The notes under the pieces are model-generated. The model was not told where the DNA came from. It saw only the letters and a program-made list of their open reading frames with translations, and ran no database searches. Source: a bacterium (lineage in GTDB: Bacteria; BMS3Abin14). Taken from it: DNA of 64,000 nt. Shown here piece after piece: positions 20,302 through 37,969 of the stretch. The stretch lies in the NCBI GenBank assembly GCA_020350725.1, contig CP070719.1, positions 1,418,096 to 1,482,095 of the forward strand. The letters run 5' to 3'. Numbering within the stretch: the stretch's first letter is position 1; every line of letters begins with the position of its first letter. The position numbers and the translations under genes are program-made.

Positions 20302-21135
20302 ATGGACATTCGAAAGAGCCTTATTCGGAAGATCGAGGAATGCGCGGACCTTCATCCCGGCAACCGCAGCGAGGGGGGAGGCCGCTACTTCGACAGGCCC
20401 CTCATTGGATTCGCCTCGGGTGCCGACCCCCTGTTCCGGGAGTACAAGCGCATAATAGGCCCGTTCCACTGGACCCCCTCCGAGATCATGGAGAGAGCCG
20501 GTGCACCGAGCGGGGGGACGGGATCAACCGTCGTCTGCTGGATCCTCCCCATTGTCGATTCGACCCGGATGAGCAACCGGATACAGACCAGATATCCCTC
20601 GAGGGCGTGGGGGCACACCAGGGGTTTCGGGGAGAGATTCAACGACGAACTCCGCAGAGTGGTGGCGGAGTGGCTCGTCTCCCGCGGCGGGCGGGCCGTC
20701 GCTCCCATGTTGATGGAGGGGTGGTCCCGCCTGGATGATCCCCGAACCGGCCTTGCTTCCACGTGGTCGGAAAGACATGCGGCGTACGCGGCCGGTCTCG
20801 GGACCTTCAGCCTCAACGGCGGCCTGATCACTCCCCGGGGCATCGCCCACCGGTGCGGGAGCGTCGTTACGGACATCCTGATGGAACCCACTCGACGGCC
20901 CTACAGTGATTACCGGGAGAACTGCCTGACGTGCAGGGGCGGGGATTGCGGTGTCTGCATCACGCGGTGTCCCGCCGGCGTCATCTCCGAGGAGGGGCAT
21001 GACAAGGATCGATGCCGGCGGTACACCTACGGACCGCCATTCCAGGCCCTCAGGGAGGAATTCGGGGTCCCTGAGGTGGGATGCGGCCTGTGTCAGACGG
21101 GTGTGCCCTGCGAGAGCACTATCCCGGAGGGGTGA
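20302..21135 (+). CDS. QueG-like (epoxyqueuosine reductase family) Fe-S protein
   Basis: PLIGFASGADPLF, WSERHAAYAAGLGTFSLN, RCGSVVTD, CGVCITRCPAG and CGLCQTGVPCE. Confidence 0.8.
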   Translation: MDIRKSLIRKIEECADLHPGNRSEGGGRYFDRPLIGFASGADPLFREYKRIIGPFHWTPSEIMERAGAPSGGTGSTVVCWILPIVDSTRMSNRIQTRYPSRAWGHTRGFGERFNDELRRVVAEWLVSRGGRAVAPMLMEGWSRLDDPRTGLASTWSERHAAYAAGLGTFSLNGGLITPRGIAHRCGSVVTDILMEPTRRPYSDYRENCLTCRGGDCGVCITRCPAGVISEEGHDKDRCRRYTYGPPFQALREEFGVPEVGCGLCQTGVPCESTIPEG

Positions 21136-21715
21136 GGGAACCGGAGCGGCCTGTACCGTCGGGAGCCGACCGGGGAACGAACACCAGGGCGGCGGAATTG
21201 ATGCAGTACCGGAGACCGGTGGGAGGGGGTCCGTCCTCGAATACATGGCCCAGGTGGCCGCCGCAGCGAGAGCACAGGACCTCCACCCTCCGGATACCGA
21301 ACAGGCTGTAGTCGTCTTCAGTGGCCACGTTCTGCGCCGCCACGGGCTCCCAGAAGCTGGGCCAGCCGGTCTTTGAGTCGAACTTGGCGGCGGACGAGAA
21401 CAGATCGTTACCGCAACCGGCGCACCGATAGGTGCCTTTGCCGTAATGGTTCCAGTAGCGGCCGGTGTATGCCCTTTCCGTACCCTTTTCCCGGAGGACC
21501 CGGTGCTGCTCTGCGGTCAGGGTCCTCTGCCATTCGGTGTCAGACCTGATCACCCTGTCGACCGTAACGTATTCCCCCCCGGCCACCGAAAACACCCGGA
21601 TCTTTTCGGGTCCCGTCATTGTCCGGCGGGTCAGCCCTGCGGCGAACGCTCTCTGCATTAATGGCAACAGGCCGAGCAGGACCCCCCCCATGATCAGAAA
21701 CGACCTCCTCGTCAC
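21119..21715 (-). CDS. msrB: Tat-exported peptide-methionine (R)-S-oxide reductase
   Basis: TRRSFL twin-arginine motif; LTAEQH.VLREKGTERAY, CAGCG...FDSKTGWPSF, CSRCGGHLGHVF and RYCINS. GTG 21715 has RBS AGAGGTG. Confidence 0.93.
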   Translation of the reverse strand: MTRRSFLIMGGVLLGLLPLMQRAFAAGLTRRTMTGPEKIRVFSVAGGEYVTVDRVIRSDTEWQRTLTAEQHRVLREKGTERAYTGRYWNHYGKGTYRCAGCGNDLFSSAAKFDSKTGWPSFWEPVAAQNVATEDDYSLFGIRRVEVLCSRCGGHLGHVFEDGPPPTGLRYCINSAALVFVPRSAPDGTGRSGSLTPPG

Positions 21716-21801
21716 CTCGATCTCACCTCTGTCGCCGGCCCGGGAAGGGGCGTGCCCTTGCACGTTCTCGCCCTTCCCAGAGGCCTTTACGGATCTCCTC
21801 T

Positions 21802-22257
21802 TCATCGTCGGGGCAGCAGCGGGCACTCGAAGTAGAAATCGGCCGGGAAAGTCTCGAGGTGGCCCAGGGTCTCGTGCAGAACCACCTCGTCGGCGCTGGT
21901 GAGTTCAAGATCCACAGTGCCGTCCCCGTTCTCATCGTGGACCTCAACGCCGGCTGCAGTGAATACCGCCAGGTACACGTTCCACCGCCCGCCGTTGTAT
22001 TCGGGGTCGCCGGGAGCAGCCTCGGCCACAGAGCGCTGGCCCTGGAGACCGCTCATCATGAAGCTGTAGATGATGTCCGAGGAATGTCCGGGTGGGGAGA
22101 TGAATGTGGTCGGGGTGATCACGGTGTCGTAGACTTGCCCATGGGCCCAGACGGCCTCGGCAACGCGGGTCGCCCCGCCTGCCATCGCCAGGGTGGCCGC
22201 TCCGGACACTGCGAAGACGAGCATGACCGCAAGCCCGATCCTCCGTTTTTTCCTCAT
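21802..22257 (-). CDS. secreted protein of unknown function
   Basis: Signal peptide (MRKKRRIGLAV...ATLAMA), strong RBS (GGAGGAAAGGAGG), QRSVAEAAPGDPEYNGGRW and C-terminal YFECPLLP. Confidence 0.8.
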   Translation of the reverse strand: MRKKRRIGLAVMLVFAVSGAATLAMAGGATRVAEAVWAHGQVYDTVITPTTFISPPGHSSDIIYSFMMSGLQGQRSVAEAAPGDPEYNGGRWNVYLAVFTAAGVEVHDENGDGTVDLELTSADEVVLHETLGHLETFPADFYFECPLLPRR

Positions 22258-22331: not shown

Positions 22332-22388
22332 AGATTAGCCCTGAAAATGGTGAGAAGGATAATCGGAAGGTAAAGAATGTATAAAATC
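22332..22388 (-). promoter_or_regulatory. putative OmpR-family box plus -10 element for the secreted protein-msrB operon
   Basis: Minus strand GATTTTATACATTCTTTACC, then 31 nt, then TAATCT; same architecture as 24803-24859. Confidence 0.55.
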
Positions 22389-22473: not shown

Positions 22474-23958
22474 TCAACCGCGGCCGGCCGCCTCCGGAAT
22501 CTGGAAGGCAAACGTTGTCCCCCTGCCCGGCTCGCTGGCCACATCGATGGTGCCGCCGTGAAGTTGCACGATCCGCTGTGCGATGGCCAGGCCCAGGCCG
22601 GAGCCACCAGCCACCTGCCCCTCCGCCCGGCGGATCCTGTAGAAACGTTCGAAGATGTGGGGCAGGTCGTCGGCGGATATGCCGGGCCCCGTGTCCGAGA
22701 TCCGCACGGAGACCGACGACCCCTCCCGGGCCAGGGAAACAGACACCTCTCCGCCCCCCCGTGTGTAGCGGACGGCGTTTTCCACAAGATTGTGGAGGAC
22801 CCGGTCCATGAGCTTCAGATCGGCCCGGACGTCGGGGAGGTCTTCCGGCAGTTCTGCCGCCAGCCGAATGCCCTTTTCCCTTGCCGGGAGAGAGAGATCC
22901 TGGATCACATCCTGGACCAGTTCTCCCAGGGGAAAGGCCACGGGGTCGATCCGGACGTCGGGAGAGTCCAGTTTGGCCAGCTCGAACAGGTCGTCGATGA
23001 GTTTCCCCAGGCGCCGGGCGTGCCGGATGGCGCTGGCCACATAAGCCCCGCGTTCTTCCGGGGAGAGCCGATCGTCCTTGAGCTGAACCGATTCAAGATA
23101 TCCCTGGATCGCCGCCAGAGGCATCCGCAGATCGTGGGATATGTTGCTCACCAGCTCCCTGCGGAGGCCGTCCACCCTGCGGATACCGGCGATCTGTTCG
23201 TTGATCCGTTCGGACATCTGGGAAAAAACGGAACCCAGCCGGTCGATCTCGTCGCCGGGAGGGTCACGGAACCCTTCCGGCAGGGGGACCGGGTGCCCGA
23301 AATCCCCTTCCCGGAACGCCTCCATGGCCCGGGCCAGACTCCGATGTCTCCGGGTGAGCTTGGCGAAAAGGAAAAGGCCGGCCGCCAAAAAGAACAGAAG
23401 TCCGGACAGGGTGACCCAGAGGCTGAGACGGAGGATGTAGCTTCCGCGGAGGAGCTCTGAAACCGAATCGTATTCCTCGCCGCCCAGGATGACGTACAGG
23501 TAACCCTCCGGCTCCCCCTCCCCGGGAACCGGCGCTGCCGAGAAGGCCTTCCTGCGGCGGATTCCCCTCGGATCCTCGCCCAGGATCGGCGTTTTGCCAT
23601 CGCCCCGGATGAAGGACAGGACGGGGTCGAGGGAGATCCTGTCCTTCCTGATCCTCCCGGGCGGGGCCGAATAGGTGAGGATCATCCCTTCCGTGTCCAG
23701 AAGGTAAAGCTCGATACCCGGGTTGATCCCCATGAGGGTCTCAAAACTCTCCTCCAGGGCCTCGCGGTTGACCCTCCCGTCCTGCAGGAAGAAATTCTTC
23801 CCCACCAGGTAGCCGGCGAGATGGCGGTTGAGATTCTGACTTGCCTCCTGGATGTACATCCGGGTGGTCAGGAGGGTCCAGAGGATGTTGAGCAATCCCA
23901 GGACAAGGAAGAGGAAGAAGAGGACGGCCGCCATCTTGCCATACAGAGTCCTAACCAC
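22474..23958 (-). CDS. HAMP-domain sensor histidine kinase
   Basis: Two TM segments, HAMP (DEIDRLG), H-box ISHDLRMPL, NLVENA, ISDTGPGI, FERFYR and GSGLGLAI. Confidence 0.95.
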   Translation of the reverse strand: MVRTLYGKMAAVLFFLFLVLGLLNILWTLLTTRMYIQEASQNLNRHLAGYLVGKNFFLQDGRVNREALEESFETLMGINPGIELYLLDTEGMILTYSAPPGRIRKDRISLDPVLSFIRGDGKTPILGEDPRGIRRRKAFSAAPVPGEGEPEGYLYVILGGEEYDSVSELLRGSYILRLSLWVTLSGLLFFLAAGLFLFAKLTRRHRSLARAMEAFREGDFGHPVPLPEGFRDPPGDEIDRLGSVFSQMSERINEQIAGIRRVDGLRRELVSNISHDLRMPLAAIQGYLESVQLKDDRLSPEERGAYVASAIRHARRLGKLIDDLFELAKLDSPDVRIDPVAFPLGELVQDVIQDLSLPAREKGIRLAAELPEDLPDVRADLKLMDRVLHNLVENAVRYTRGGGEVSVSLAREGSSVSVRISDTGPGISADDLPHIFERFYRIRRAEGQVAGGSGLGLAIAQRIVQLHGGTIDVASEPGRGTTFAFQIPEAAGRG

Positions 23959-23962
23959 CGGA

Positions 23963-24670
23963 TTATTCCCCTTTCTCCTCTGCGAATCGATAGCCGACCC
24001 CCCAGACCGTCTCGATATACCGTGGGTGGCTCCTGTCCTCCTCCAGTTTGGCCCTCAGCTGGTTGATGTGGGAGTTTACCGTGTAGGAATAACCGGTGAA
24101 CGAGTAACCCCAGACGCGGTCCAGGAGCTGTTGACGTGTGAAAACCCGGCCGGGGTTGCTGGCGAAAAACCAGAGCAGATCGAACTCCTTGGCCGTCAGC
24201 CTGACCTCCTTTCCGCCCAGTACGACTTTGCGTCGATCGGCGTCGATGGAGAGTCCGCCGATCCGGATGACGGAATCCGAAGGGGCTTGCACGCTCCGCT
24301 CAATGGAGTCGACCCGGCGGAGGATGGCCTTGACCCTTGCGACCAGTTCCCTGATGCTGAAGGGCTTGGTCATGTAGTCATCAGCCCCCATCTCCAGTCC
24401 GAGCACACGGTCGAGCTCGGTCGACAGGCTGGTGAGCATGAGGACCGGCGTATAGGGGGGATCCGCCCTGAGGGCCCGGCAGATCTCCAGTCCGTCCCCG
24501 CCGGGCAGCATGAGGTCGAGGATAATGAGCTGGTAGTCGCCCGCGATCCCCTCCCTGAGACCCGTCTCTCCGTCGTGGACCACCGTCACCAGATAGCCGG
24601 CGTCCTTCAGGTGATCCTCGAGAAGTTTGGCCAATTCCCGCTCGTCCTCGACGACGAGTATTTTCTTCAT
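23963..24670 (-). CDS. OmpR/PhoB-family response regulator
   Basis: KILVVEDE, IILDLMLPGGDG, ADDYMTKPF, LTAKEFDLL and IETVWGVGYRF; start at ATG 24670 (or 24682). Confidence 0.95.
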   Translation of the reverse strand: MKKILVVEDERELAKLLEDHLKDAGYLVTVVHDGETGLREGIAGDYQLIILDLMLPGGDGLEICRALRADPPYTPVLMLTSLSTELDRVLGLEMGADDYMTKPFSIRELVARVKAILRRVDSIERSVQAPSDSVIRIGGLSIDADRRKVVLGGKEVRLTAKEFDLLWFFASNPGRVFTRQQLLDRVWGYSFTGYSYTVNSHINQLRAKLEEDRSHPRYIETVWGVGYRFAEEKGE

Positions 24671-24802
24671 CGCATCGATCATTGTCCGAGCCTGCCTTCT
24701 CCGGGGAGAGGTCAACACCGTGACGGACCGGTCGAGTCCGTGCTGCGGATGGCTTTCCCATTCATTACCCGATAGATCGCTCCCATTCAAAGCTTTTCCG
24801 AT

Positions 24803-24859
24803 GATTTTATAGAAATTTTATCAGCCGCTGAGACTCCTCCATCCTTTACAGGTTAAAGT
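24803..24859 (+). promoter_or_regulatory. putative OmpR-family box plus -10 element for msrA
   Basis: GATTTTATAGAAATTTTATC (ATTTTAT direct repeat, 11-bp period), then 31 nt, then TAAAGT. Confidence 0.55.
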
Positions 24860-24932
24860 GACACCTGTAGCGGTGAAGAACGGCTCCCACCGAACCGGTA
24901 GCATTTCCGGAAAGAGAGGTTATATTGTTGCC

Positions 24933-25772
24933 ATGGGTGCATTAGTCAAATTATTGGTCGCAGTCCACCTTCTGGGCTGGGTTCTGGCAGGTGGGTCAGA
25001 GAAGCCGTTATACGGGAGTGCCGGTCTGGCGCCCTCGGGCGCGGCCTGCGCTCTGCCCGGGTCGGTGGACGAAAAAGCGGAGGAACCGATGAAAACCGAG
25101 ATCACAGGGAACGTCTCGCCCGTTCCGTTTCCCATCGACGTGAGGGTGCCGAAGGAAATCCGGACGGCCACATTTGCCCTGGGGTGATTCTGGGGGCCGG
25201 ACTCCCGGTTCGGGAGTATGAGAGGAGTCGTCCGGACCCGGGTGGGCTACGCCGGAGGGCGTTCGGCCGATCCCACCTATCACAACCTGGGCGACCATGC
25301 GGAGACCGTCCAGATAGAATACGACCCGAGCATCCTCACCTACGATGACCTGCTGAGCGTGTTCTTCTCCTCCCACCGCCCGACGGTCCCCTCCTACTCG
25401 CCGCAGTACCGGTCGGTCATCTTCTACCATGACGAGGAACAGAGGAGGCTGGCCCAGGATGCCAAGGAGAGGCTGGAAAGGAAGGCGAAGGGCCAGATCT
25501 ACACCGACATCGAAGCCTTCACGGGTTTCACGCTGGCCGAGGATTACCATCAGAAGTATGGCCTGCGGCACAACGCCGCCGTGATGCGGGAATTCGAGGC
25601 CGCATACCCCGATCCCATGGATTTCATCAACTCCACCGCCGCTGCCCGGGTCAACGGGTACCTGTACGGCAACGGGAGCCTGTTGCAGCTGAAGGAGGAA
25701 TTGCCCGAGCTGGGTCTCTCCGAATCCTCCGCCAGGGTGCTGGAGTCTTTCGTGGGAAAGTACAGCCGGTAG
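24933..25772 (+). CDS. msrA: selenocysteine-containing peptide-methionine (S)-S-oxide reductase with N-terminal signal-like sequence; in-frame UGA at 25185-25187
   Basis: Track ORFs 24858..25187 and 25218..25772 are in the same frame. The junction reads ATFALG-UGA-FWGPDS, the GCFW catalytic motif; TRVGYAGG, HAETVQIEYDP, QYRSVIF and AEDYHQKY follow; a hairpin lies just downstream. Confidence 0.9.
25201..25217 (+). promoter_or_regulatory. candidate bacterial SECIS element for the msrA UGA
   Basis: ACTCCCG-GTT-CGGGAGT 7-bp stem; the loop G is 21 nt after the UGA. Confidence 0.65.
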
Positions 25773-36769: not shown

Positions 36770-37969
36770 ATGAGATCGAGACATCTCAGTTTCCTTGTCC
36801 TTTTCTGCTGCGCGGTCCTCCTGTCCTCTCCGCTGCCGGCAGCTGCTGAAAAGGTGGATTTCCAACCGGTTCGGACTCCTTCTATGGGGCCGGAAAACGC
36901 CAAGGTCACGGTGTACGAGATCGCGGACTTCATGTGACCATTCTGCAAGGAGGTCGGTCCGGCCTTCAAAAGGCTCAAGGAAGAGTACAGTGACAGGGTC
37001 AGGTTCGTCTATGTGCCCTACATGAGACAGTATTCGGGTTATTCGCGTGACACGGCTCTGGCATCCTATGCCGCCTGGGATCAGGGCAAATTCTGGGAGA
37101 TGCACGACCTCCTCTATGAGAACGCCCCTGACCTCGAAAGGGAGGTGCTGGACAGCCTGGCCTTGAAGCTGGGGCTGGACATGGACAGATTCCGGAAAGC
37201 CATGGACGAGAAGGCCCATCTCGACGAACTCCAGGGCAATCTGGACAGGGTCCACGAGCTGGACATCTGGAGCACCCCGACGGTGATCATCAACGGGGTC
37301 ATGATCAAGGGTGTTCAGCCCTACGAGCGCTACAGGGAACTCATCGAGGAAGCCCTGGCCTCCTCGAGCAGATCGGGGCCCCTCCACCGGATACAGGATG
37401 CAGCCCTGAGGATCCTGAGCCCTGCCGAGGTTTTCGCCGAAACGGGCGAATTCGGCCGCGGCCGGGTGCCGCTTTGGGTGCAGGCTCCCCGGCTGAAACC
37501 GGTCAACGATCTCAAGGTGGGCGATGCCGCTCCCGACTTCACCCTGCCGAATGCTCAGGGGGGTGAGATCACACTGAGCGCATTCAAGGGGAGCAAGAAT
37601 GTCCTCATCTCCTTCCTGCCGGCGGCCTTCACTCCTACCTGAAGCGGTCAGCTTTCCGCTTACGAGGAGCTCAAACCTCGTTTCGCGGAACTGAACACTC
37701 AGGTTCTGAGTGTGCTGGAAGACAACCTCCCGACGCTGCAGGCCTGGAGCCAGGGGTTGAACGCCTCCTTTCCCATCCTGAGTGATTTCTGGCCCCACGG
37801 TGAGGTCGCACTGCTCTACGATGTCCTCCGGTCCGAAGGGATCGCCGAGAGGGCCCTCTTCATCGTGGACAAGGAGGGGGTCATCCGCTTCATAGACATA
37901 CACGACATCAACGAGGACCCGGGCATGAACGCCATTCTCAAAACCCTGGAGGAGATCGAGGGAAAGTGA
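36770..37969 (+). CDS. exported DsbA-like/AhpE-like peroxiredoxin fusion with two in-frame UGA (Sec) codons at 36935-36937 and 37640-37642
   Basis: One frame from ATG 36770 (RBS AAGGGGG) to TGA 37969: signal peptide, GPENAKVTVYEIADFM-U-PFC, GKFWEMHD, STPTVIING, then KVGDAAPDFTL...FLPAAFTPT-U-SGQL, SDFWPHGEVA, ERALFIVDKEG. Both UGAs sit at catalytic Cys positions. Confidence 0.88.
36951..36965 (+). promoter_or_regulatory. candidate SECIS element for the first UGA of the fusion
   Basis: AGGTCG-GTC-CGGCCT stem with one G-U pair; the loop G is 20 nt after the UGA, like the msrA hairpin. Confidence 0.55.

Follow-up and report, generated by a model that had tools for sequence, protein, structure and literature searches.

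In this work, we describe a selenoprotein gene located at positions 24933-25772 (+) of a 64,000-nt stretch of bacterial DNA (contig CP070719.1, positions 1,418,096 to 1,482,095 of the forward strand; hereafter the window, with positions counted from its first nucleotide). The gene, msrA, encodes a methionine sulfoxide reductase (Msr) A whose catalytic residue is predicted to be a selenocysteine (Sec). Our overall reading, to which we assign a probability of roughly 0.72, is that the long form of this Sec-MsrA is exported to the cell envelope, that it carries a cysteine, Cys39, proposed to react with the catalytic Sec, and that a shorter form made from an internal start stays in the cytoplasm. 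The enzyme family is already known; the layout of the gene is undescribed.

The msrA frame is read as one selenoprotein gene of the CoMsrA type

When TGA is translated as Sec (U), positions 24933-25772 of the forward strand give a protein of 279 amino acids that is followed by a TAG stop codon and contains a single U, residue 85 (codon 25185-25187), in the context IRTATFALG-U-FWGPDSRFGS. Translation table 11 breaks the same frame into two open reading frames (24858..25187 and 25218..25772). A preliminary description of this DNA, based on the letters of the sequence, had joined these two frames through UGA 25185 as G-U-F-W and named the product a Sec-MsrA; the in-frame join is present at that position, and the catalytic motif G-[C/U]-F-W-G is satisfied by ALG-U-FWG. 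Residues 78-214 form a PMSR catalytic domain (25164..25574 (+); Pfam PF01625, E 1e-41), and in an NCBIfam scan the protein scored 125 bits for the MsrA model TIGR00401, whose cut-off is 108. The nearest matches in the PDB are the selenoprotein MsrA of Clostridium oremlandii (CoMsrA; 4U66/4LWJ, E 2e-55, about 44% identity), with query residues 75-267 aligned to chain residues 6-198. The remainder of the protein corresponds to a C-terminal helical domain of the CoMsrA type (25575..25769 (+)), as judged by both the alignment to 4U66/4LWJ and a Foldseek superposition. Built from a 78-sequence alignment, the AlphaFold2 model (mean predicted local distance difference test score, pLDDT, of 88.6) superposed on 4LWJ with a template modelling score of 0.90 over 205 residues, the helical domain included, a domain seen in 4LWJ that is without counterpart in other MsrA structures. 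The Pfam model named for it, PF20939 ('Selenoprotein MsrA helical domain'), gave no report for our protein at E <= 0.01, and it matches relatives such as P0004. From these data, positions 24933-25772 are predicted to be one intact selenoprotein gene encoding an MsrA of the CoMsrA type, to which Met-S-sulfoxide reductase function is assigned by family membership. Separately, the NCBIfam model NF041383 ('VPGUxxT family thioredoxin-like (seleno)protein, type 2') matched the MsrA domain weakly (E 2e-8, far under its cut-off), which suggests that this model includes an MsrA-like region.

Codon and hairpin conservation point to recoding of UGA 25185

We looked for relatives in 185,579 species genomes, one genome per species, and examined the best 80 loci. 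The catalytic codon was TGA in 72 of these 80 loci, which span Chloroflexota, Nitrospirota, Desulfobacterota-type bacteria, Planctomycetota, Spirochaetes and Bacillota. Closer to our gene, nine relatives from the family of the host (f1) or from just outside it, together with a metagenomic contig (L037), have one in-frame TGA at the identical site.

Downstream of the UGA lies a hairpin (25200..25218 (+)), the core of which, ACUCCCG-GUU-CGGGAGU, occupies positions 25201-25217. Its geometry is that of a bacterial selenocysteine insertion sequence (SECIS), the lower stem beginning 12 nt, and the G-first triloop lying 20 nt, downstream of the UGA. The local folding energy is unexceptional (minimum free energy of -33.4 kcal/mol, z = 0.0 against shuffled sequences); because the coding sequence is GC-rich, this shuffle test is uninformative, and synonymous sites were used instead. 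For that purpose, 82 Sec-msrA genes (80 distinct sequences) were compared with eight Cys-form relatives that encode the same peptide. In the Sec genes, codon choice was nearly fixed wherever the hairpin is encoded: Ser +6 is TCC (57/57), Arg +7 is CGG (51/54), Ser +10 is AGY (63/63), and Gly +9 is GGG in 76/82 against 20/81 at the free Gly +3 (Fisher p = 3e-20). In 76 of the 82 genes the loop reads GUU, the free Gly +3 and Pro +4 each use their four synonymous codons evenly, and the Ala/Gln variants (GCC...CAG, GGGCAG) alter both sides of the stem. At least six of the inner seven pairs can form in 58/82 Sec genes versus 1/8 Cys genes. Since the synonymous sites are fixed in the Sec genes and unconstrained in the Cys forms, we identify the hairpin as the SECIS element, and the preliminary description was right to single it out.

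The host genome, complete as a single 2.78-Mb contig of 59.8% GC (C1), encodes the machinery for Sec insertion, whose absence would have spoken against the preliminary description. The tRNA-Sec lies at C1:2104494-2104591 (74 bits; anticodon tca by aragorn), selA (600 bits) and selB (367 bits) adjoin each other, and all of tRNA-Sec, selA, selB and selD exceed curated cut-offs. The selD gene (C1:1315718-1316350 (+)) itself holds an in-frame TGA, and its product is predicted to be a Sec-containing selenophosphate synthetase.

If UGA 25185 were a true stop codon, the gene would be broken or would encode two separate peptides, as the split of the frame under table 11 could be taken to mean. Against this, 82 genes conserve the UGA together with the hairpin and the frame that follows, and the genome encodes a complete Sec machinery; we hold a true stop to be extremely improbable. 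UGA 25185 is instead predicted to be decoded as the catalytic Sec; the SECIS at 25200-25218 would recruit SelB and tRNA-Sec so that the codon is read as Sec85.

The long form carries a conserved leader and is predicted to be exported

The preliminary description had noticed that translation from ATG 24933 produces an export-type hydrophobic leader, MGALVKLLVAVHLLGWVLAGG. We assign residues 1-20 (MGALVK / LLVAVHLLGWVL / A-G; 24933..24992 (+)) as a signal peptide, with cleavage predicted after VLA20. The AlphaFold2 model has a helix at residues 2-18, followed by a disordered stretch at residues 24-60 (pLDDT < 50 for 24-40). A hydrophobic N-terminal segment of 13-22 residues is found in 10/10 orthologues, which bears out the earlier observation, and in most of them an A-x-A-type site follows this segment (AMA|G, ATA|L, ASA|V, THS|L; VLA|G in our protein). 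More widely, a leader is present in 70/82 Sec-msrA genes. Many of the leader-bearing relatives display a clear lipobox (LAILAGC|Q, LFLVLGC|Q, SLLVGC|N), and four contain a twin-arginine translocation (Tat) motif of the RRxF[LVIM] type (SRRNFLKG, SRRSFMRE, KRRAFVRG, NRRVLVKG). At least 50 codons are open upstream of the Sec codon in 84/91 genes. In our protein, a start at ATG 24933 places 74 residues ahead of the region aligned with CoMsrA, and CoMsrA itself begins five residues before that region.

We also considered where the relatives begin translation. A strong Shine-Dalgarno (SD) sequence precedes the leader in six of the ten orthologues: in L020, L021, L023, L024 and L026 it is of the AGGAGG type and stands 6 nt ahead of the codon that starts the leader, and L022 has GGGAGG ahead of a TTG start that precedes its leader. 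Moreover, L020-L024 have no internal Met usable for a leaderless start, and such orthologues must therefore initiate before the leader.

Several features of our gene weigh against this reading. The n-region of the leader offers a single Lys, and a His falls within the h-region; the SD of ATG 24933 is rather weak (-6.5 kcal/mol) and 13 nt distant from its start codon; and the GC content at third codon positions (GC3) of the leader is 0.65 versus 0.85 for the gene. The long SD spacing is shared by L037, the closest orthologue. As to composition, the GC content of the leader by codon position is 0.71/0.52/0.65, an indecisive result for 52 codons rich in Gly, Ala and Leu.

Two other readings of the N-terminus were weighed. 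According to the first, the protein starts only at ATG 25089, as in CoMsrA, and the hydrophobic stretch is an untranslated 5' leader. The atypical GC3 of the leader fits this proposal, as do the stronger and better spaced SD of ATG 25089 (-9.5 vs -6.5 kcal/mol) and the higher frequency of strong SDs at internal starts across the family (40/52, against 26/70 upstream). It does not account for the long open frames ahead of the Sec codon, which encode hydrophobic leaders, lipoboxes or Tat motifs, for the AGGAGG before the leader in orthologues devoid of the internal Met, for a conserved Cys39 upstream of Met53, or for a neighboring MsrB that bears a Tat signal, so that a purely cytoplasmic enzyme appears very unlikely. 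According to the second, the leader is an uncleaved membrane anchor (N-out, C-in) that keeps the catalytic domain at the cytoplasmic side of the membrane. In some orthologues, positive charge is indeed absent ahead of the hydrophobic segment (MNMETFH.., MNIETFQ.., MILNT..), and K/R follow it. However, most have a positive n-region with A-x-A-type sites after the h-region, the lipoboxes and Tat motifs of the relatives make sense only for export, and the msr island includes a Tat-MsrB; we regard such an anchor as still less credible.

Taken together, the leader is very likely translated and used as an export signal, and we consider export of the long form highly probable on these comparative grounds and in view of the surroundings of the gene, a two-component-system island with a Tat-MsrB whose operon has the same rare promoter box as msrA. 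Translation from ATG 24933 would yield a 279-residue precursor that its signal peptide directs through the general secretory pathway to the cell envelope, where the exported MsrA would repair oxidized methionines alongside the Tat-exported MsrB.

An internal start may provide a cytoplasmic form

The preliminary description held that translation from 25089 would refute export by making the protein cytoplasmic. We found that a strong and conserved start signal does exist there but that export is not thereby refuted, the data pointing to the existence of the two starts side by side. The signal consists of the SD GGAGGA (25079-25084), located 4 nt upstream of ATG 25089 (Met53; 25079..25091 (+) for the whole element), with a predicted SD duplex of -9.5 kcal/mol. 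ATG 25089 lies 32 codons before the Sec codon, and its product would be a leaderless form of 227 amino acids.

In the family, an in-frame ATG is placed at codon -33 from Sec in 28/70 leader-bearing Sec-msrA genes, and at -31 to -34 in 44/70. With a strong SD defined as one of <= -7.4 kcal/mol (5th percentile of control positions), 53% of the ATGs in the linker are preceded by a strong SD versus 8.2% of the other linker codons (Fisher p = 2e-24). The residues encoded ahead of the internal Met vary (GGGKN, KEDTT, EEGTD, QEVA, AEEP) and the GGAGG is retained, which places the constraint at the RNA level. In addition, leaderless members of the family (L102, L106, L108, L120, L125) start at the very position of the internal Met. 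No leaderless Msr gene was found in the complete host genome.

What weighs against a second product is that the internal SD-ATG is absent from 6/10 orthologues (L020-L025, L037), which makes it dispensable, and it could be a relic. On this view only the exported form is made, and GGAGGA-ATG 25089 is either a remnant from an ancestor that lacked the leader or a pause site resembling an SD, at which ribosomes would slow during membrane targeting or ahead of the UGA. The orthologues that dropped the internal ATG and kept the leader fit such a proposal, and so do the unrelated types of leader in the family (signal peptidase I, lipobox, Tat), which suggest repeated and recent N-terminal extension of a leaderless gene. 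On the other hand, the ATG keeps its place at -33 in 28/70 genes and its GGAGG at a distance of 5-9 nt, even between phyla in which no other part of the linker can be aligned; the constraint acts at the RNA level and a pause site needs no ATG; and the genome would be left without any other source of cytoplasmic MsrA. We therefore judge an exported form alone to be rather unlikely.

We favor, with some reserve, a functional internal start from which a cytoplasmic short form is also made. The simplest reading of the sequence comparisons is that msrA yields a long form for export and, nested within it, a 227-residue cytoplasmic form equivalent to CoMsrA. GGAGGA and ATG 25089 would thus direct the synthesis of a Cys-free enzyme that stays in the cytoplasm and works like CoMsrA, being reduced directly by a glutaredoxin-type reductant.

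Regarding the other Msr genes of this genome, all four carry export signals, hydrophobic leaders in the two MsrA and twin-arginine motifs in the two MsrB; the two genes outside the window lie at C1:2283150-2284220 (-) and C1:2194162-2194702 (-). Within msrB2, the second MsrB gene, a GGGAGG-ATG (-11.6 kcal/mol) lies immediately ahead of the part encoding the catalytic domain, and several MsrAs of the family with a GCFWC-type active site have an SD-ATG 15 codons before the catalytic Cys.

Cys39 is a candidate resolving cysteine of the exported form

The preliminary description had stated that the enzyme has no resolving Cys and that a Sec-MsrA of this kind is known from Clostridium. The precedent is sound: CoMsrA, from Clostridium (Alkaliphilus) oremlandii OhILAs, is a 1-Cys-type selenoprotein (PMC4479559) of 209 amino acids without any Cys (PDB 4LWJ, 4LWK-M, 4U66; PMC4479559, PMC4333827). 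As for our protein, the first part of the statement holds for the catalytic and helical domains, residues 53-279 being devoid of Cys, but not for the full-length precursor, whose single Cys is conserved and is a candidate for this role. This residue, Cys39 (TGC, 25047..25049 (+)), is present in the long form only, within GAAC-ALPG.

In the alignment of N-termini, the Cys39 column and a Leu two residues later are the only linker positions conserved in at least 8 of 11 sequences (the Cys motif in 9/11). No other part of the linker, which spans ~60 residues from the hydrophobic segment to the P-x-x-D motif, could be aligned. The motif, in the forms AACALPG, VSCELPG, SACDLLP, TSCSLPP, VACALPP, ASCPVPA, AACDLPP, AACALPF and STACDLAP, is summarized as xAC[A/D]LP. 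Genes of Nitrospirota (L058 SSDSCPLPG, L100 ESASCPSPA) and Dehalococcoidia (L067, L073, L087, L113) encode a similar Cys, located at -41 to -46 relative to Sec. Wherever a linker Cys and an internal Met both occur, the Cys lies 9-15 residues upstream of the Met, so that only the exported form would carry it. About 20 other Sec genes instead encode a Cys in the C-terminal tail (GCPL, SCPLP, ICPLP, ACPVR) at +196 to +206. The two were found together in none of ~15 linker-Cys genes, which represent about four independent lineages and make this exclusion not significant.

Two results lend a resolving role no backing. An equivalent of Cys39 is missing in two orthologues (G003 and G041), which weighs against it, and AlphaFold2 leaves the linker disordered without docking Cys39 to the active site, which neither supports nor refutes it. 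The G041 protein, which has no linker Cys, has a tail Cys (PPIMCK).

We also examined Cys39 as the lipidated Cys of a lipobox, the sequence in the window being nearly a fit to the PROSITE lipobox pattern. This was rejected: the residue stands 18 residues after the h-region behind a long hydrophilic spacer, and position -4 is occupied by D/E in the orthologues. In L067 and L113, a true lipobox and a linker Cys occur as separate features.

In view of the conservation of its column, it is quite possible, if somewhat short of probable, that Cys39 is the resolving Cys of the exported form. Cys39 would attack the selenenic acid formed on Sec85 to give a selenenylsulfide, which would then be reduced by an envelope thiol protein.

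A few relatives showed further peculiarities. Two genes, L020 (G008:C30) and L018 (G003:C90), have a short in-frame extension after the TGA stop of Sec-msrA (RAGPCPSLSP.. and RKG-TGA-TGKAL, respectively); that of L020 includes a CP motif similar to the one around the tail Cys in relatives, and these extensions could be relics or read-through tails. In L026 (G006:C241), the match to Sec-msrA is split over two frames in its C-terminal third, reflecting either an assembly error or a pseudogene. L068 and L082, from metagenome-assembled genomes of Anaerolineae, are MsrB-MsrA fusions with a signal peptide or a lipobox, in which the MsrA part retains the UGA and the SECIS.

msrA belongs to an island with a putative dedicated two-component system

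Upstream of msrA we identified a box, ATTTTATAGAAATTTTAT (24804..24821 (+)), made of a direct repeat with an 11-bp period. A search of the 2.78-Mb genome for its AT-rich pattern, ATTTTAT-N6-TTTAY, gave only three sites, all of them ahead of msr genes. The second copy, ATTTTATACATTCTTTAC (22370..22387 (-)), precedes an operon encoding a secreted protein and MsrB, and the third (C1:2284227-2284244 (-)) precedes the second MsrA gene. The boxes cover three of the four Msr genes, msrB2 being the exception. A -10-like hexamer, TAAAGT (24854..24859 (+)), was recognized by eye 32 nt after the msrA box, and the other two boxes have a comparable spacing (~32 nt) to a TANNNT sequence. A consensus promoter scan upstream of msrA called nothing, this hexamer included. 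If TAAAGT is used as the -10 element, GTG 24858 falls outside the mRNA. This codon and GTG 24873 had been tried as alternative starts of msrA and were discarded for their poor SDs (-3.2 and -1.6 kcal/mol), GTG 24858 also overlapping the hexamer.

Divergent from msrA is the gene of an OmpR/PhoB-type response regulator (23963..24682 (-), ATG 24682 being picked as start for its SD of -8.0), which matches no specific NCBIfam equivalog. It is followed by the gene of a sensor histidine kinase (22474..23958 (-)) with HAMP, HisKA and HATPase domains and two transmembrane segments that flank a periplasmic loop of ~145 amino acids. Next on the same strand are the genes of a secreted 151-residue protein with a signal peptide (21802..22257 (-)) and of an MsrB with a twin-arginine signal (TRRSFLIMGG...AFA-AG; 21119..21826 (-)), the start of which is uncertain (GTG 21826 or ATG 21805).

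In G003, G008 and G014, Sec-msrA likewise has repeats resembling the box in its upstream region. So does msrB of G003, whose promoter is of the sequence type of the second window copy and, like it, continues with CTAATCT. G003, which belongs to a different genus, has the same island: the Tat-MsrB, histidine kinase and response regulator genes are on one strand, and Sec-MsrA followed by a signal-peptide MsrA of the GCFWC type are on the other. The box is probably a binding site of the adjacent OmpR-type regulator, and the three boxes look like a small Msr regulon of this two-component system. In E. coli, the OmpR-type two-component system HprSR (YedVW) regulates msrPQ, providing another case of such a system adjoining, and probably controlling, envelope methionine sulfoxide repair genes. 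MsrPQ differs from the island described here in that it consists of a molybdoenzyme and a haem membrane partner and is not a thiol/selenol Msr.

The 151-residue protein of the island represents a conserved family (55-65% identity) that matches no Pfam model. Its single and invariant Cys is in the C-terminal motif YFECPLLPR, a second motif (FMMSGLxGQRSV) is also conserved, and the CPLLP sequence is similar to the motif around the tail Cys in many MsrA relatives. The idea that this protein is a universal Msr partner was rejected, a homolog in a Nitrospirae contig not being located beside an msr gene.

The proposed DsbA partner and the supply of electrons

The preliminary description had nominated as reductant of MsrA an exported DsbA-like domain with a UxxC motif, encoded at 36770. 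According to domain matches, this domain is part of an exported fusion protein (36770..37969 (+)) that has a signal peptide, a DsbA-like domain (FM-U-PFC) and a peroxiredoxin domain (TPT-U), with two Sec in total. In such a model the domain would be the dedicated reductant of MsrA, in a tandem of Sec proteins resembling the Sec-glutaredoxin/Sec-MsrA couple of C. oremlandii. Both proteins have export signals, and the reduction of CoMsrA by a Sec-glutaredoxin is cited in PMC4479559. The genome also encodes neither DsbB nor VKOR to keep a DsbA oxidized. Among the 16 genomes of family f1, the fusion occurs in 9/9 genomes with Sec-MsrA and in 3/7 without it, a co-occurrence with a one-sided Fisher p of ~0.02, uncorrected for phylogeny or for incomplete genomes; four of the seven genomes without Sec-MsrA are only 71-78% complete. 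The co-occurrence that the preliminary description had set as a check stands in part: it is complete on the side of the f1 Sec-MsrA genomes, but the fusion is also present in genomes without Sec-MsrA and is missing in G041, where Sec-MsrA is present.

A dedicated partnership, for its part, is poorly supported. The two genes show no synteny: 11 kb with unrelated genes separate them in the window, 146 kb in G004 and 1.4 Mb in G010. Across the 61 genomes searched, family f1 alone yielded the fusion, whereas exported Sec-MsrA genes occur in many phyla. The fusion gene has no msr promoter box, and its DsbA domain is already fused to its own likely client, the peroxiredoxin. We consider it improbable that this domain is the dedicated reductant of MsrA. 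Both TGAs of the fusion gene are kept in 11 relatives, a G008 copy ended by the contig edge having one TGA, and gene callers fragment the gene. Further exported Sec-containing proteins of the DsbA-like/peroxiredoxin kind are encoded in the genome, for example at C1:969059-969559 and C1:2610064-2610420, each with one in-frame TGA.

We then considered how electrons might reach an exported MsrA. In the complete genome, no match was obtained to PF02683 (DsbD_TM/CcdA), PF13386 (DsbD_2), PF02600 (DsbB) or PF07884 (VKOR), while control genomes did match. The lack of a DsbD/CcdA conduit weighs against our reading of the long form, which it leaves as an envelope thiol Msr without a known electron supply. 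No thioredoxin fold was found fused to MsrA, which has PMSR as its sole Pfam match, or encoded by the neighboring genes.

Comparison with known systems

As in CoMsrA, the Sec residue of our protein lies in G-U-F-W-G, and the PMSR domain is followed by a C-terminal helical domain, neither domain having a Cys. In CoMsrA the helical domain is essential. CoMsrA is 20-fold more active than its Cys mutant and is reduced by glutaredoxin but not by thioredoxin (PMC4479559). Unlike CoMsrA, which is leaderless and cytoplasmic, the msrA product described here adds a signal peptide and the Cys39 linker, and its gene adds an internal SD-ATG and a place in a regulated island of envelope Msr genes.

Extracytoplasmic thiol Msr systems are described for Neisseria (PilB/MsrAB with DsbD), Streptococcus pneumoniae (MsrAB2 with Etrx1/2 and CcdA) and Haemophilus influenzae (periplasmic MsrAB) (PMC6210582, PMC3914529, PMC9404787). 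The present system resembles the PilB and MsrAB2-Etrx systems in the predicted export of classical MsrA/MsrB chemistry for the repair of envelope proteins. Those systems rely on Cys enzymes, usually with MsrA and MsrB fused and a thioredoxin-fold reductant fused or adjacent, and receive electrons via DsbD/CcdA. In contrast, we find a Sec-MsrA, an MsrA (general secretory pathway) and an MsrB (Tat) that are separate, no adjacent thioredoxin domain and no DsbD/CcdA.

The role proposed for Cys39 has an analog in the mammalian selenoprotein MsrB1, in which Cys4 of the flexible N-terminus turns the selenenic acid into a selenenylsulfide for thioredoxin, dithiothreitol alone being effective without Cys4 (PMC1278935). 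By analogy, Cys39 would likewise be a flexible N-terminal Cys that captures Sec. The parallel is limited in that MsrB1 is eukaryotic and belongs to the MsrB family, and the role of Cys39 is deduced from conservation only.

Finally, pairs of N-terminal proteoforms made from alternative in-frame starts are known in bacteria, for example for SseL and CheA (PMC13515050). The arrangement in msrA is similar, with two in-frame starts and a targeting sequence in the long form only, and differs in that the short form would also lose an isoform-specific Cys. In the searchable literature, we found no example of such a pair for an Msr or a selenoprotein, and full-text searches brought up neither a Sec-MsrA described as exported or periplasmic nor a bacterial Msr with dual starts. 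A 2026 review mentions MsrA only as the GUFWG/H selenoprotein.

Implications for envelope protein repair

Combining the above elements gives a fuller scenario, which we offer as speculative. The exported long form would trap Sec85 as a selenenylsulfide with Cys39, and the short form, cytoplasmic, Cys-free and CoMsrA-like, would act in the cytoplasm, where Msr repair would depend wholly on internal starts. In the envelope, recycling would be ensured by a network of thiol and selenol proteins that operates without DsbD/CcdA, DsbB or VKOR.

Exported Sec-MsrA genes are systematically misannotated, even though they are the majority form in the species-genome scan. Gene callers split Sec-msrA or read the UGA as Trp, and the protein database accordingly has C-terminal fragments of 176-184 amino acids and 'GWFWG' forms. 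The searchable selenoprotein literature, for its part, treats Sec-MsrA as a cytoplasmic enzyme of clostridia. An envelope protein-repair selenoenzyme in anaerobes, with what may be a dedicated two-component system, would extend the known envelope Msr systems. What is specific to the present case is the isoform-specific Cys, the regulated set of Msr enzymes that are all predicted to be exported, and the absence of a canonical envelope redox conduit. Cys39 offers a testable resolving Cys that would be limited to one isoform, and the conserved internal start makes msrA a testable case of bacterial dual localization from a single gene.

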